A DNA stretch of 64,000 nt. Source: Escherichia coli (lineage in GTDB: Bacteria; Pseudomonadota; Gammaproteobacteria; Enterobacterales; Enterobacteriaceae). The position numbers and the translations under genes were made by a program. Under the pieces are notes generated by a model. It saw only the letters and a program-made list of their open reading frames with translations. It had not been told where the DNA came from and made no database searches. The stretch lies in the NCBI RefSeq assembly GCF_022846255.1, contig NZ_AP025682.1; one strand, 5' to 3'. Positions 17,340 to 39,650 of the stretch are shown one piece after another. Position 1 is the stretch's first letter, and every line of letters begins with the position of its first letter.

Positions 17340-19289
17340 TCAATCTGCATGCTCAACATTTGGATAGAGATTATAGATTTTAAGTTTGCGCCATAATGTT
17401 GTACGACCAATTTTTAATACTTCAGCTGCTTTAGTTAGATTCCATTCGCAGACACGACATGTATGCTCAATAGCTTGCATCTCCAATTCTGCCAGTGAAG
17501 TAAGATGAGGGATATCATCGTCGCCACTACTGTTATTTTGTCGGATATCCAGAGGAATATTCTCTAACCCGAGGACAAGTCGATTGCAGTTAATAAATAC
17601 CTTCTCCATTCGATTTTTGAACTCGGAGATGTTCCCAGGCCAACGGTACTCAAGCAGAACTGAATTTGCGTCAGGCGTGATTGTCATTTTTTTTCGAGTG
17701 CGCTCCTGATACTTATCAATAATATCGTCAATCATTTGCTTGAGATCTTCACGACGTTTGCGCAATGGCGGAATTTCAATTTCATTCATGGAGATCTCAT
17801 AATATAGCTGTCGGCTAAAAGCCCCTTGTTGCACGTACTCACGTAAAGAACTACTGGTACATGTAATCAGGCGAAAGCGTACGGGGATCAAACGATGGCT
17901 GTCTGAGCGAGTAACAAGCCCCGTTTTCAATACTTTCAATAAAACACTCTGAACTTCCCCTGATAGATATTCGACTTTATCCAGATATAAGGTGCCATTA
18001 TGAGCCAGTTCAAATTTCGATGGCGAAGGGCCAACATCAGAGCCAAGAAGTTCGTGTAAGATATTTTCTGGTGATAGCATCTGACAATCTACAGAAATAA
18101 ATGGCCCATCACGTTGCTCGCTCTCATTATGTATTGCCATCGCCAAACTCAATTTTCCCACACCTTCTTCGCCATTGATCAAAATCGGAGAGATGGATTT
18201 AATTGCCCGGCGAGCGATAAGTAATACCTGCTTCATACCACCTGAAGCCGCATGTAAACTGTCAAAGGTAAAATTTGCATTAGTGCTTATTTGCTGTTGG
18301 GCTATTTTCCTGATTTTGTCTAATGGATGAAGAAAAAGCAAAAACGAACCATCGCTTAACGGGCGAAGGGTAACCATAAGTTCAATAAATTCGCCACGGC
18401 ATTCGAGGACAATTTGCTTTTGCGATAGTTTGTTTCGTTGTGTAATTGCCTCATTCAAAATCGGCGGAAATACGAATCCTTTTCGGATGTTCTGACCAAT
18501 TAAACTTTCTTTATCAATATTCAGTAATGTTTGTGCTTGAGAATTAACCATCGTAATTAAAGAATGACTATTCCAACAAATAAAACCGTCATCCATACAT
18601 TCAATCACAGCATTATGCTGGCAAAGTACTTTGTTTATTAACTTTTGTTCATTCTCAATATAGATATAATTAGCGATTTCTGTTGCACATGAATATGATG
18701 TTTTTAATTTAACAAGCTCGGCGGTGGTTTCAATTATACATACAATGTATCCATGTATATTACCATAATAATCAATGACCGGAGCTGCGCTCATCGCATA
18801 ACAATGTAGCTGTTCACTAAAATGTTCTGCTCCTTCCAGTTGTGTATATAAATTTGTTTCCCGACAAAGACTATATACATTGGTTCCAATGCCATCTTCG
18901 GCCCATGACATACCAGATTCAATTCCTAACTCTCGCAATTGACTGGAATAATCGCCTGCTGCATTCAACGATAGAACCCAGCCGTGTGGGTCAATGATCA
19001 AAAATGCCAACCGGTCGTCACCAGCCAGGGTGAAATGGTCTTCAACAACTCTTTGTGAAATTCTAATAAACTCTTCGTTACGAGAAAAAATCGTCTGCAA
19101 TGTTTGCCCGGAAGCTTTGACAGGCGTGTTCCAGTGGCGAGGGTCACAATGCTTGAGACATTTTTGCCATGACCTCAGCATCACATGATTAGTCGAATTT
19201 GTCGCGACCCAACCATGCTTAACAAACATTTTCCATTTATTTTTTAGATCATTATGATACGACTCTTTATTCATTATAATAATATCCAT
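17340..19289 (-). CDS. DhaR-type transcriptional activator (sensory N-terminal region + AAA+ domain + C-terminal HTH) lacking the GAFTGA sigma-54 contact motif
   Basis: AAA+ Walker A GEEGVGK, ...HNESEQRDGPFISVDC..., C-terminal Fis-type HTH (IGRTTLWRKLK). The usual GAFTGA position reads GSDVGPSPSKFE, as in DhaR-like regulators that act with sigma-70. Confidence 0.8.
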   Translation of the reverse strand: MDIIIMNKESYHNDLKNKWKMFVKHGWVATNSTNHVMLRSWQKCLKHCDPRHWNTPVKASGQTLQTIFSRNEEFIRISQRVVEDHFTLAGDDRLAFLIIDPHGWVLSLNAAGDYSSQLRELGIESGMSWAEDGIGTNVYSLCRETNLYTQLEGAEHFSEQLHCYAMSAAPVIDYYGNIHGYIVCIIETTAELVKLKTSYSCATEIANYIYIENEQKLINKVLCQHNAVIECMDDGFICWNSHSLITMVNSQAQTLLNIDKESLIGQNIRKGFVFPPILNEAITQRNKLSQKQIVLECRGEFIELMVTLRPLSDGSFLLFLHPLDKIRKIAQQQISTNANFTFDSLHAASGGMKQVLLIARRAIKSISPILINGEEGVGKLSLAMAIHNESEQRDGPFISVDCQMLSPENILHELLGSDVGPSPSKFELAHNGTLYLDKVEYLSGEVQSVLLKVLKTGLVTRSDSHRLIPVRFRLITCTSSSLREYVQQGAFSRQLYYEISMNEIEIPPLRKRREDLKQMIDDIIDKYQERTRKKMTITPDANSVLLEYRWPGNISEFKNRMEKVFINCNRLVLGLENIPLDIRQNNSSGDDDIPHLTSLAELEMQAIEHTCRVCEWNLTKAAEVLKIGRTTLWRKLKIYNLYPNVEHAD

Positions 19290-35269: not shown

Positions 35270-36043
35270 TCAGGCGTCGACTTTATCCAGCGGCCATGAA
35301 TCAAACAGATAGCCATCGAAATAGATGTCATCAACATTAGAGAACTCCAGCAAGCGCTGCTTCACATTCTCCAGATGCTGCCACATTGCCAGCTTCGCCG
35401 CTCGGGCATCTTTTTTGATTAACGCGGCGAGGATCTGTTTGTGATCGCCCAACCACTCTTTGCGATACAGGCTGTCATCCAGGTGGCTGTGCAACTGGAT
35501 CCACATTGGATTGTTTTCCCGCCACTGCCAGGACTGACGGAATAACTCCACCAGCATGCTGTTATGCGTTGCTTCGGCAATAGCGAGATGGAACTGCATG
35601 TCACCGCTTTCGCTGCTGCCCGGCGCGCTGGAAGCCAGTTCACGCTCTTCCAGTTGCAATGCCTGGCGCATTTTGACGATATCTTCGCGGGTAGCCTGCA
35701 GGGCGGCAAACTCGGCGATGTTACTTTCCAGTAACTGCCGCGCCTGTAACAGCTCAAAAGGACCGGCATCGTTGCAGACGTTGGCATCCGGACTGTCTGC
35801 GTTGTGGCTGCCTGAGCTATCAAGAACATAGATACCTGCACCCCGACGCACTTCCACCAGCCCTTTGATCTCCAGCATGATCAGCGCTTCACGTACCACC
35901 GTCCGCGTGACATCAAGCATTTCTGCAATTTCACGCTCCGGTGGCAGCCGTTCGCCAGGATTGTACGGCGTCTTTATGATCAGATCGCGGATCATCGCCC
36001 CGACTTCCTGGTAAGGTCTTTGCGCAGAGGTGGCAGATTTCAT
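35270..36043 (-). CDS. uxuR: GntR/FadR-family repressor of the uxu regulon
   Basis: 257-aa GntR-family HTH protein with FCD domain. Confidence 0.9.
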   Translation of the reverse strand: MKSATSAQRPYQEVGAMIRDLIIKTPYNPGERLPPEREIAEMLDVTRTVVREALIMLEIKGLVEVRRGAGIYVLDSSGSHNADSPDANVCNDAGPFELLQARQLLESNIAEFAALQATREDIVKMRQALQLEERELASSAPGSSESGDMQFHLAIAEATHNSMLVELFRQSWQWRENNPMWIQLHSHLDDSLYRKEWLGDHKQILAALIKKDARAAKLAMWQHLENVKQRLLEFSNVDDIYFDGYLFDSWPLDKVDA

Positions 36044-36114: not shown

Positions 36115-36257
36115 AACGGGCAATTTTACGGCACCCGTTAAGCTCAAACTATACCATTAGCACTGGATGTTGGCACGTACAGGTGGGCAAAAAAACGAAA
36201 ACTGGTCAACCAAATATTAGTTTGATTGACCAGTAAGTCTGTAGGGTAATCAGTTAG

Positions 36258-37718
36258 TTACAGCGCAGCCACACACTCGCGCGCACCGCGCTCACACAGC
36301 TGCTGATATGCCGCCGTCACCGCGCCGACAAAGTCGGCGTTCTGCGGCAGATCATCGGCAAAGATACCGCTCAGGCCCAGCAGTGCTTTCACGCGGTCTG
36401 CACCCTGATACTGCGCGTTGATCTTCTGGAACTCCGCCAGCATCGGGTCAACCACGTCAATGGCATTACCCTGCTCATCCACGCCCTGGGTGTAGCGCAT
36501 CCAGCCCGCCACGCCCAGCGCCAGGTGACGCCAGCTGCCGCCGTTTTGCAGGTGCAGACGCACAGGGTCCAGCAGACGCTGCGGTAACTTCTGGCTGCCG
36601 TCCATCGCAATCTGCCAGGTGCGGTGACGCAGAGACGGGTTGCTGAAACGCTCGATCAGCAGCGTCGCATAGGCGTTCAGGTCCGTACCTTCCGGCATCG
36701 ACAGCGTTGGCGCTTGTTCCTGCATCATCAGGGCAAAGGCCGCTTTGCGATAATCCGGATTAGTCATGGTGTCGGCAATAGTTTCATAGCCACCGAGGTA
36801 ACCGAGGTACGCCAGGAAAGAGTGGCTACCGTTCAGCATACGCAGCTTCATCATTTCGAACGGTACAACATCCGCAACAAACTGCGCGCCGACTTTATCC
36901 CAGTCCGGGCGACCATTAACGAAGTTATCTTCAATCACCCACTGACGGAACGGTTCGCAGGCAATGGCGCACGGGTCGTAAACACCCAGCTGGTCAGCAA
37001 TTTCCTGTAAGGTTTCTGGCGTCGCCGCCGGAACGATGCGGTCAACCATGGTGCACGGGAAGGTGACGTTTTCTTCAATCCATGCCGCCAGCTGTGGATC
37101 ACGCGCCTGAGCCAGCCCAAGAACGGCAACCTTCGCCACATGACCGTTTTCACGCACGTTGTCGCAGGACATCACCGTAAATGCTTTCAGCCCTTTTTCA
37201 CGACGCAGACGCAGGGCTTCTACGATGTAACCAATCGCGGACTTCGGCGCAGTCGGGTTTTCCAGATCGTGCTTAATCAGCGGATTATTGAGATCCAGCT
37301 GACCGCTTGCCGCATCGGCGCAATAACCTTTCTCTGTGACCGTCAGGGAGACAATCGCCGTCTGCGGACGCGCCATCGCGTTGAGAATACCTTCACAACC
37401 GTCGATTTCCGGATGCAGGGCTTCTTTCATTGAACCGATAATTTTCAGCTCGGTGCTTTCCGCGCCTTTTTCCGCCACGGTGTACAGCAGTTGCTGTTTT
37501 TTCAGGTTTTCGATCAGCACGCGGTCGTTGCCTGGCATCAGGTTAACTTCGCAGATACCCCAGTCGCTGTCGGTGCTTTCCAGCAGATGATGGGTGTACA
37601 GCGCCTGGTGCGCGCGGTGAAACGCCCCGCAACCGAGATGCACAATGCGTGATTCCAGACGAGAATGATCCCATGACGGGCGGGCAACCGGCAGATTGCT
37701 GTCAACAATAGTAGTCAT
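36258..37718 (-). CDS. uxuB: D-mannonate oxidoreductase
   Basis: 486-aa mannitol dehydrogenase-family protein. Confidence 0.9.
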   Translation of the reverse strand: MTTIVDSNLPVARPSWDHSRLESRIVHLGCGAFHRAHQALYTHHLLESTDSDWGICEVNLMPGNDRVLIENLKKQQLLYTVAEKGAESTELKIIGSMKEALHPEIDGCEGILNAMARPQTAIVSLTVTEKGYCADAASGQLDLNNPLIKHDLENPTAPKSAIGYIVEALRLRREKGLKAFTVMSCDNVRENGHVAKVAVLGLAQARDPQLAAWIEENVTFPCTMVDRIVPAATPETLQEIADQLGVYDPCAIACEPFRQWVIEDNFVNGRPDWDKVGAQFVADVVPFEMMKLRMLNGSHSFLAYLGYLGGYETIADTMTNPDYRKAAFALMMQEQAPTLSMPEGTDLNAYATLLIERFSNPSLRHRTWQIAMDGSQKLPQRLLDPVRLHLQNGGSWRHLALGVAGWMRYTQGVDEQGNAIDVVDPMLAEFQKINAQYQGADRVKALLGLSGIFADDLPQNADFVGAVTAAYQQLCERGARECVAAL

Positions 37719-37798: not shown

Positions 37799-38983
37799 TT
37801 AACGGCTAAAGAAAGCGCGCTGGATCGCCAGTTCGACACCGCGAACTTCGGCCAGGCCTTTCAGACGACCAATTGCGGAGTAACCTGGGTTGGTTTTCTT
37901 CTTCAGGTCGTCCAGCATCTGATGACCGTGGTCCGGACGCATCGGGATCAGGTCTTCTTTGCCTTCCGCTTTACGACGGTGTTCTTCTTCAACAATCGCT
38001 TTCACCACTTCGTACATATCAACGTCACCGTTCAGGTGCGCCGCTTCGTGGAAGGTTTTCGGGTTATCTTCACGCATGGTGGAGCGCAGATGGGTGAAGT
38101 AAATACGCGGACCGAACTGCTTGATCATATCAACCAGATCGTTGTCAGCACGCACGCCGTAGGAACCGGTGCACATGGTGAAACCGTTCGCCATGCTGTT
38201 TACGGTATCAACCATCCACTGCATATCTTCAATGGTGGAAACAATGCGCGGCAGGCCGAGGATCGGGCGCGGCGGATCGTCCGGGTGAACCGCCATACGC
38301 ACGCCAACTTCTTCAGCAACCGGAATAATCGCTTTCAGGAAGACAGCGAAGTTTTCGCGCAGTTTGGCTTTGTCGATATCTTTGTACAGCTCCAGGTGCT
38401 TACGGAACTGGTCGAGGGTATACCCTTCTTCCGCACCTGGCAGACCGGCAATGATGTTACGGGTCAGACGCGCTTTGTCTTCGTCGCTCATGGTGGCGAA
38501 GCGTTCAGCTGCCTGAGCAATTTCTTCTTCGGTGTAATCCGCTTCCGCGCCTGGACGCTTCAGGATATGCATTTCGAATGCAGCGAATTCGATCTGGTCG
38601 AAGCGCAGAGCTTTGGAGCCGTCTGGCAGCACGTATTCGAGGTCAGTACGGGTCCAGTCGAGCACCGGCATGAAGTTGTAGCACACGGTGCGAATGCCGC
38701 ACTGCGCCAGGTTGCGCAGAGTCTGCTGATAGTTAGCGATCCACTGCTCATAGTTGCCAGTGTGGGTTTTGATATCTTCGTGAATTGGCACGCTTTCTAC
38801 GACAGACCACACCAGGCCTGCGTCTTCAACGATCGCCTTGCGTTTGAGGATCTCTTCTACGGACCATACTTCGCCGTTCGGGATATGGTGCAGCGCGGTA
38901 ACCACGCCAGTTGCGCCCGCCTGACGGACATCAGCTAAAGAAACCGGATCGTTTGGGCCGTACCAGCGCCAGGTCTGTTCCAT
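37799..38983 (-). CDS. uxuA: Mannonate dehydratase
   Basis: Start placed at ATG 38981-38983 ([10 protein letters not shown]...) with an agagga SD; the track ORF extends 10 codons further upstream. Confidence 0.9.
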
Positions 38984-39145
38984 GATTTTTCCTCTTTCAC
39001 ATAGTGGGTTCAACAGCGAAGAGACGCGGAACCCCGGAGTTGTTTAGGTATCCGGATGAACAACCCGGCCACAGCCGTAGCGTCGCATCGGATGAGATGG
39101 CGTATAAGTTCTACCTTTTGGTAAGACATGTCAACCCGAATTCTG

Positions 39146-39160
39146 AAATTGGTTAACCAC
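39146..39160. promoter_or_regulatory. Candidate UxuR/ExuR operator (AAATTGGTTAACCAC) upstream of uxuA
   Basis: Palindromic TGGT-N-ACCA core typical of FadR-subfamily GntR operators, about 165 bp upstream of the uxuA ATG. Confidence 0.45.
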
Positions 39161-39252
39161 ATCACAAGAATTTTACTCTCACGGTTGTTGCTGCAAATTG
39201 CAGCAAAGGGTAATCGATGGTTATTGATCAGAGGATGTGACATTCATCGCAA

Positions 39253-39267
39253 TAATGGTTGACCAAT
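39253..39267. promoter_or_regulatory. Candidate UxuR/ExuR operator (AATGGTTGACCAATT) upstream of the gntP remnant
   Basis: Second TGGT-N-ACCA palindrome about 60 bp upstream of the gntP start codon. Confidence 0.4.
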
Positions 39268-39322
39268 TTGCATAACATGTCGCCCAAAATAACAACGGTT
39301 CAACCAGGTAAGGTAAAACGTT

Positions 39323-39539
39323 ATGCATGTGCTTAACATTCTCTGGGTGGTATTCGGCATTGGCCTGATGCTGGTACTGACAATGACCGCAGGTTCAGAC
39401 ACATTCCCTACATTAGCAATGCCTCTTAGATTACTTTGACCTGTCAGTAAAAGACACGTTGAAAACCTGGGGTCTGCTGGAGCTGGTCAACTCCGTGGTT
39501 GGGCTGATTATTGTGCTGATTATTAGCATGGTAGCGTAA
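39323..39539 (+). pseudogene. gntP: gntP (gluconate/fructuronate permease) deletion remnant
   Basis: ATG at 39323 encodes a permease-like N-terminus (MHVLNILWVVFGIGLMLVL...) that stops after 38 codons. From about 39432 a different frame encodes a GntP-family C-terminus ([35 protein letters not shown], stop at 39537-39539). About 1.1 kb of the expected ~1.3-kb gene is absent. Confidence 0.75.
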
Positions 39540-39559
39540 AAGAGCACCTGAGCCTGCCA

Positions 39560-39650
39560 TTGGCAGGCTCTGTTCGGATTGTCGGTAAAGTGCGCTTTGT
39601 TTATGCCAGATGCGACGCTGACGCGTCTTATCTGGCCTACAAAGGGCTAA
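39560..39650. repeat. REP element between the gntP remnant and fimH
   Basis: gcctgccattggcaggctc hairpin followed by ...tgccagatgcgacgctgacgcgtcttatctggcctacaaa, a REP-type palindromic unit. Confidence 0.6.

Follow-up and report, generated by a model that had tools for sequence, protein, structure and literature searches.

Probable UxuR operators in the uxuA/gntP control region of an Escherichia coli genome that carries a deletion remnant of gntP

The region between uxuA and gntP described here is most probably the standard gntP–uxuAB-uxuR control region of E. coli, in which two palindromes, S1 on the uxuA side and S2 in the gntP promoter, serve as UxuR operators, and in which S2 persists as a neutral leftover of an old deletion of gntP. 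We found that both palindromes are identical to their counterparts in K-12, that they are not chance occurrences, that they are conserved across genera, that the gene for the cognate repressor is intact, and that the gntP deletion is old and widely spread. The control region itself is already known as part of the UxuR regulon (Bates Utz et al. 2004; Rodionov et al. 2000; Suvorova et al. 2011; Shimada et al. 2018).

Palindromes and predicted promoters of the uxuA/gntP spacer

The window (the whole stretch of DNA that was analysed, 64,000 nucleotides) contains the fim-gntP-uxuAB-uxuR locus of E. coli in the orientation opposite to that of K-12, with fimH, fimG, fimF and fimD on the far side of the gntP remnant from uxuA. 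The uxuA/gntP spacer occupies positions 38984-39322 and is 339 bp long, the same length as in K-12 MG1655, and the ATG of gntP follows directly at 39323. The principal features of the locus are the following.

35270..36043, minus strand: uxuR, intact gene for the cognate repressor, 257 aa (full-length match to NCBIfam equivalog NF007588, 582.9 bits)
36199..36216: S3, third UxuR-type box, AAACTGGTCAACCAAATA, with a core match at 36203-36212, between the uxuB stop and the uxuR start
36258-37718: uxuB
37799..38983, minus strand: uxuA (mannonate dehydratase), intact, 394 aa, ATG at 38983..38981
39146..39163: S1, probable UxuR operator on the uxuA side, 18-mer AAATTGGTTAACCACATC, core TGGTTAACCA at 39150-39159 (TGGT-TA-ACCA)
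39252..39269: S2, probable UxuR operator in the gntP promoter, 18-mer ATAATGGTTGACCAATTT, core TGGTTGACCA at 39256-39265 (TGGT-TG-ACCA)
39323..39539, plus strand: gntP remnant, 217 bp, comprising the first 58 nt of the gene, the deletion junction, the scrambled patch (39381-39427) and the final 112 nt

A preliminary description of this DNA had reported two TGGT-N-ACCA palindromes in the spacer. The first of them, AAATTGGTTAACCAC, lies exactly where it had been placed, at 39146-39160; the second, AATGGTTGACCAATT, had been assigned to 39253-39267 and is present, but is displaced by one base, its true position being 39254-39268. Both palindromes are real, but the gap between their half-sites comprises two bases and not a single N. 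The centre of S1 is 171 bp upstream of the uxuA ATG and that of S2 is 62 bp upstream of the gntP ATG, the latter in agreement with the distance of about 60 bp given before. Within the 64-kb window, the pattern TGGTNNACCA is matched three times, as against 0.73 matches expected from shuffles, and all three matches fall in uxu control regions; at least two matches would occur in the 339-bp spacer with a Poisson chance of 7e-6. A chance origin of the spacer palindromes is excluded. When up to three mismatches to the 18-mer AAATTGGTNNACCAATTT are allowed, the window yields the places of S1, S2 and S3 only. E. albertii and Citrobacter have boxes homologous to S3 at the same place, in the uxuB-uxuR gap, and S3 is probably the site of uxuR autoregulation.

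The region shares with the gntP/uxuAB region of K-12 the 339-bp spacer, the order fimH, gntP, uxuA, uxuB, uxuR, an intact uxuR and, upstream of it, the third box, and S1 and S2, together with their immediate surroundings, are identical base for base. It differs from the K-12 region in that gntP survives only as a 217-bp remnant, which leaves S2 without a gene to control, and in 13 substituted positions of the spacer, all of which lie outside the operators and cluster in the uxuA leader. Among 16 E. coli sequences, 11 of the 23 variable spacer columns fall in the interval 39012-39084. We considered, and rejected, this cluster of leader substitutions (39012-39084) as a mark of decay; it instead represents two haplotypes of a retained hairpin. 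This stem-loop of the uxuA 5' leader (39050-39093, minus strand) differs between the haplotypes at 39066, 39068, 39071, 39079 and 39084, with pairing kept through G-U to A-U or G-C changes, and its folding z-score is -2.65 in the K-12 version and -0.68 in that of the window. The E. coli uxuA leader is about 78 nt longer than that of Citrobacter. Relative to sequenced strains, the interval 38984-39600 is a mosaic. In particular, only the bat isolate A3 has a spacer that is 100% identical, the other genomes among the matches listed reaching at most 97.9%, whereas the gntP remnant differs from that of A3 and is 100% identical to those of UTI89, 536, LF82 and others.

We carried out cross-genus footprinting with uxuA loci from 80 species representatives, in which neighbouring genes were annotated and upstream regions were lined up. 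The S1 and S2 boxes are conserved in related genomes (E. albertii, Citrobacter, Enterobacter, Cedecea and Erwinia), with S2 itself kept in E. albertii and Citrobacter. On the uxuA side, a module that reads, in the uxuA sense, TGTGAT(G/T)T-GGTTAACC-AATT(T), about nine bases, GGTTGACA, 17 bases and GAAYTT is conserved in Escherichia, Citrobacter, Enterobacter and Cedecea. Shimwellia retains the module except for its TGTGAT prefix, and Erwinia retains only the TGTGATTT-GGTTAACC-AATTT part, such that GGTTAACC-AATT(T) is common to Escherichia, Citrobacter, Enterobacter, Cedecea and Erwinia; TTGACA-N17-GAAYTT is conserved across five genera. Although it breaks the UxuR palindrome, the TGTGAT prefix to the S1-like box has been retained by Citrobacter, Enterobacter R1, Cedecea and Erwinia. 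The promoter elements predicted on the two sides are as follows.

39106..39134, minus strand: predicted uxuA promoter, with -35 TTGACA at 39134..39129, a 17-nt spacer, -10 GAACTT at 39111..39106 and a start near 39099
39151..39166, minus strand: putative CRP-like half-site that overlaps S1, TGTGATGTGGTTAACC in the uxuA sense, its centre at about -60 from the predicted uxuA start
39236..39251, plus strand: putative CRP-like site of the gntP promoter, TGTGACATTCATCGCA (TGTGA-CATTCA-TCGCA), at about -41.5 from the predicted start
39273..39278, plus strand: predicted gntP -10, TAACAT, with a start near 39285; kept in Citrobacter and E. albertii

The CRP-like sequence TGTGACATTCATCGCA matches nine of the ten core positions of TGTGA-N6-TCACA; the gntP start near 39285, from which its distance is counted, is itself a prediction. 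The site is invariant in the 16 E. coli sequences and conserved in E. albertii, in Citrobacter (as TGTGACATCTATCGCA) and in a divergent Escherichia (about 90% identical) that is labelled E. coli SCPM-O-B-8794 and is referred to here as L016. Given these predicted starts, the centre of S1 would lie at about -55 of the uxuA promoter, just upstream of the -35 element, and S2 would lie at about -25 of the gntP promoter, between the CRP-like site and the -10 element; the -55, -25 and CRP positions are all predicted from consensus and conservation. The conserved promoter elements around S1 and S2 support the earlier suggestion that one site is placed for uxuA and the other for the gntP promoter. Bates Utz et al. 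2004 reportedly found that UxuR binds an operator that overlaps the gntP promoter, that fructuronate abolishes this binding, and that gntP needs cAMP-CRP. The predicted layout of the gntP promoter fits this account.

A simple consensus promoter scan missed the conserved uxuA promoter. Its call on the uxuA strand was a -35 element at 39197..39192 with a -10 element at 39175..39170, an arrangement that would place S1 at +1 to +18. We ranked this site (39197..39170) second as a candidate for the uxuA promoter because it is conserved neither in L016 nor even in E. albertii. The -35 element of this sole scan-called promoter-like site is overlapped by a perfect palindrome, TTGCTGCAA-A-TTGCAGCAA, which lies between S1 and S2 at 39188-39206; the palindrome is invariant in the 16 E. 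coli sequences and degenerate in E. albertii, L016 and Citrobacter.

Loss of gntP and persistence of S2

The decay of gntP that had been reported for this DNA was borne out. A deletion of about 1.1 kb has reduced the gene to its first 58 nt and its final 112 nt, with a scrambled 47-nt patch between them, and the RefSeq annotation lists the remnant as a partial pseudogene in strains A3 and UTI89. The deletion junction lies at an 11-nt direct repeat, TGCTGGTACTG (39369-39379), which is present near both ends of intact gntP. The identical junction, together with the same secondary deletions of 1 nt and 13 nt, occurs in 846-851 of 5426 complete E. coli genomes (about 16%), among them UTI89, 536, LF82, APEC O1, IHE3034 and NU14. 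It is carried on two haplotypes, which differ at nine positions (about 5% of the remnant), by one 12-nt deletion and in their downstream flanks. That so many genomes share one junction on two haplotypes therefore indicates a single old loss and not a recent private one; with its secondary lesions and its presence on two diverged haplotypes, the junction speaks against the recent gene loss that had been proposed.

Compared with gntP of K-12, E. albertii and Citrobacter, the 47 nt just past the junction show about 15 derived changes, G:C to A:T in eight cases, as well as the 1-nt and 13-nt deletions, and the flanks of this patch are about 96% identical to K-12. The patch resembles the product of a mutation shower confined to the repair site, or else a piece of foreign sequence. 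A REP-like element is located downstream of the gntP remnant, at 39599-39637, where there is a sub-threshold match to the Rfam family naRNA4 (30.7 bits as against a gathering score of 59.5; two such matches). An Rfam scan of the spacer and the remnant returned no family. In L016, fim, gntP and nanC have been lost through an independent and larger deletion, the end of which lies 16 bp upstream of the gntP ATG, so that S2 and the CRP site are spared. The orphan gntP promoter of L016 (L016:2400-2760), the -10 element of which is changed to TAACGT, points at nanM about 190 nt downstream; judged by its sequence, this arrangement may be a promoter fusion.

We compared the sites among strains with and without the gntP deletion, as the preliminary description had called for. 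In the 16 E. coli sequences, eight of which carry the deletion, 23 of the 339 spacer columns vary, and none of these falls in 39146-39160, in 39254-39268 or in the CRP site; S1 and S2 are thus invariant in this set. A search of 5404 genomes with the 30-mer 39240-39269 found it identical in 25, with one mismatch or a trimmed end in 5297, and with 2-3 mismatches in 82. The single mismatch is a T/C difference at 39253 in all 12 C-type sequences sampled, and the 82 of 5404 genomes with additional changes constitute a bound in which deletion carriers and non-carriers are pooled. Among the eight carriers there are 13 segregating sites in 248 nt of the dead remnant, and at this density an 18-bp site would remain untouched with a probability of 0.39. 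In the 86 nt of the orphan gntP promoter two sites segregate, as against an expectation of 4.5 (P = 0.17, not significant); this variation is lower than the 13 in 248 nt of the remnant and leans weakly to constraint. The choice that had been posed between a recent loss and a remaining role is a false one, as the data agree with an old loss that left a neutral relic, both for S2 (P = 0.39) and for the promoter (P = 0.17). The intactness of S2 needs no special explanation, because the diversity of E. coli is too low to have eroded a site of 15-18 bp.

An alternative that we regard as unlikely, albeit the least so of those we weighed, is that S2 keeps a job as an auxiliary operator that cooperates with S1, through looping or through a higher local concentration of UxuR, to tighten the repression of uxuAB, and that it is selected with or without gntP. 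In its general form, to which we likewise give only modest odds, UxuR would work through pairs of operators about ten helical turns apart, the partner of S1 being the gntP-promoter operator in Escherichia and Citrobacter and a box in the uxuA leader in other genera, and S2 would be under selection in the approximately 16% of E. coli that lack gntP. The centres of S1 and S2 are 106 bp (about ten helical turns) apart in Escherichia and 104-105 bp apart in Citrobacter, even though most of the sequence between them cannot be aligned. In Cedecea, Enterobacter Ag1, Enterobacter R1 and Erwinia, the partner of the S1-like box lies in the opposite direction, within the uxuA leader and at a distance of 102-105 bp, and the pairs of Cedecea and Enterobacter Ag1 have no divergent gene to serve. 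Overall, the 102-106 bp spacing recurs at ten loci in five genera, two of them without a divergent gene, although the Enterobacter R1 pair includes a low-scoring box from one scan only. In a stringent box scan, 13 of the 26 pairs within 400 bp fall in the range of 102-115 bp. The Vibrionaceae also have box pairs, 113-115 bp apart, which are located in a divergent TRAP-transporter gene pair. (The recurrent enterobacterial pairs at 102-106 bp and Vibrionaceae pairs at 113-115 bp are found at loci L016-L026, L052, L058, L062, L065, L073 and L080.) Moreover, S2 and the CRP site have survived both of the independent losses of gntP, namely the internal deletion in the window and the deletion of the whole gene in L016.

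Two palindromes about ten helical turns apart that flank or lie near a promoter, at similar spacing in several genera, resemble the arrangements used by loop-forming repressors such as the lac repressor (O1/O3) and Atu1419. Within the GntR/FCD proteins there is a precedent in Atu1419, a Zn-binding repressor that is tetrameric and connects palindromes 109 or 190 bp apart by DNA looping (PMC7797058), and a class of cooperative double sites with constant spacing is described in PMC4494728. However, unlike these repressors, UxuR is described as a homodimer (PMC8092373), nearly all GntR regulators that have been studied are dimers (PMC7797058), and each of the E. coli operators already has a promoter of its own to repress. 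The distance from S2 to the gntP ATG is just as constant (62.5 bp versus about 65 bp) as that from S1 to S2, and therefore the S1-S2 spacing may reflect nothing more than the lack of indels in a compact back-to-back promoter pair. Most of the box pairs belong to divergent gene pairs, with a separate promoter for each box; in Erwinia, Enterobacter R1, Providencia and Vibrio, the second box of the pair acts on a divergently transcribed transporter gene. In Shimwellia, where there is no divergent gene, the boxes are adjacent, at a distance of 22 bp. The conservation statistics for S2 are not significant.

Assignment of S1 and S2 to UxuR or ExuR

The palindromes had been described as FadR-subfamily GntR operators in a divergent uxuA/gntP control region, and this is supported by their UxuR-type GT-N2-AC cores and by their identity to K-12. 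They had further been ascribed to a pattern used by both UxuR and ExuR. The UxuR part of this ascription holds, but ExuR is acceptable only loosely, by way of the reported cross-binding of the paralogues, given the N2 gap and the poor scores of the sites against an ExuR matrix. According to Suvorova et al. 2015 (PMC4494728), the half-sites are separated by two bases in the UxuR motif (GT-N2-AC) and by three in the ExuR motif (GT-N3-AC), and the cores of S1 and S2 both have the UxuR-type spacing (TGGT-NN-ACCA). A working biosensor that is repressed by UxuR and inducible by glucuronate has been built on the operator aaattggtataccaattt (PMC8092373), of which AAATTGGTNNACCAATTT is the 18-mer. S1 matches this operator at 13 and S2 at 14 of the 16 specified positions, each with the full TGGT/ACCA core, and S1 and S2 each contain one perfect AAATTGGT arm. 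Full-text literature searches with the operator strings returned nothing relevant.

We consider it quite improbable, more so than an auxiliary role for S2, that S1 and S2 serve chiefly as operators of ExuR, or serve ExuR and UxuR-ExuR heterodimers to an equal extent, the region then being mainly an output of the ExuR regulon. Such a reading draws on the dual control of uxuAB by ExuR and UxuR and on the cross-binding of the paralogues, as reported from classical genetics and in later work (cited in PMC9369180; PMC11806353). The operators of uxaCA, exuT, uxaB and exuR, which are controlled by ExuR, do have features in common with S1 and S2, including a paralogous FadR-subfamily repressor, A/T-rich flanks, a TKGT/ACMA core, a role in the hexuronate pathway and reported cross-regulation. 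They differ from S1 and S2 in their odd, three-base gap, as against the even gap of the latter, and in their matrix scores. In particular, we derived an ExuR matrix from 45 distinct curated sites in the portion of the PMC4494728 supplement used here, for which the training sites have a median score of 17.8 and a minimum of 8.8; S1 scores 9.5 and S2 scores 7.8, at or below the weakest training site and thus at the bottom of, or below, the training range. By gap (GT-N2-AC in place of GT-N3-AC) and by matrix score, S1 and S2 fail as ExuR operators of the kind in that curated set. The E. coli rows of the curated ExuR list, in the same portion of the supplement, are uxaB, uxaCA, exuT and exuR, with uxuA and gntP absent. 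Finally, genomic SELEX with purified UxuR alone picked out a single specific site in the gntP/uxuA spacer, the binding to which was weakened by glucuronate (PMC5934670). We therefore assign S1 and S2 to the UxuR type on the basis of the two-base gap, the low ExuR matrix scores and the absence of uxuA and gntP from the curated ExuR list.

As a third, ExuR-type operator of the spacer we considered TTGGTAAGACATGTCA (39115-39133), which lies inside the predicted uxuA promoter, and rejected it, its matrix score of 6.2 being below that of every training site. The best match to the ExuR matrix in the window is AATGTTGTACGACCAATTT, at 17395-17413, with a score of 15.9. This site lies inside the 3' end of a gene for a DhaR-like sigma-54 regulator (17340-19289), upstream of an unnamed 456-aa ORF and of a gene for an NhaC-like antiporter.

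Proposed mode of control and its meaning

Under the preferred reading, in which S1 and S2 are UxuR operators and S2 has outlived its gene, UxuR would act as a fructuronate-responsive repressor of the GntR family (FadR subfamily), which is reported to be a Zn-binding homodimer. When inducer is lacking, UxuR would occupy both S1 and S2. Bound at S2, between the predicted CRP site (about -41.5) and the -10 element of gntP, it would block RNA polymerase; bound at S1 (about -55), where the palindrome overlaps the putative CRP-like half-site (about -60), it would prevent the activation of a uxuA promoter with a weak -10 element. D-fructuronate, made from glucuronate by UxaC, would then release UxuR. 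The promoter positions, the roles of CRP and the steric mechanisms in this scheme are all predictions that we infer from the arrangement of the sites. An old deletion between the copies of the 11-nt direct repeat would have destroyed gntP, and S2 would now control only a short junk transcript. The persistence of S2 would be due to its being a small mutational target in a species of low diversity, and not to a recent loss of the gene.

By far the least probable alternative is that the orphan gntP promoter and S2 are kept because the transcript of about 250 nt has gained a function, as a 38-aa peptide or as an antisense or structural RNA. In its favour, the promoter has been preserved together with the CRP site, S2 and the ribosome-binding region, and the remnant retains an uninterrupted reading frame of 38 codons. 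Against it, the carriers differ freely in their remnants (13 segregating sites, deletions of 12 nt and 1 nt, and missense changes in the junk peptide), the remnant contains no Rfam match, the only ones being the sub-threshold naRNA4 matches downstream at 39599-39637, and the independent deletion in L016 removes it entirely.

In itself, the finding is of little importance, in that it re-identifies a textbook-level control region of the E. coli hexuronate pathway. It does illustrate that, at the level of diversity found in E. coli, an operator kept beside a dead gene is no evidence of function. The gene gntP, which encodes a fructuronate transporter, is an old pseudogene, spread over a clade, in about 16% of complete E. 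coli genomes, and its carriers include two model uropathogens (UTI89 and 536) and a Crohn's-associated strain (LF82). That paired UxuR boxes repeatedly lie about 104 bp apart in different genera offers a testable hypothesis of cooperative repression.
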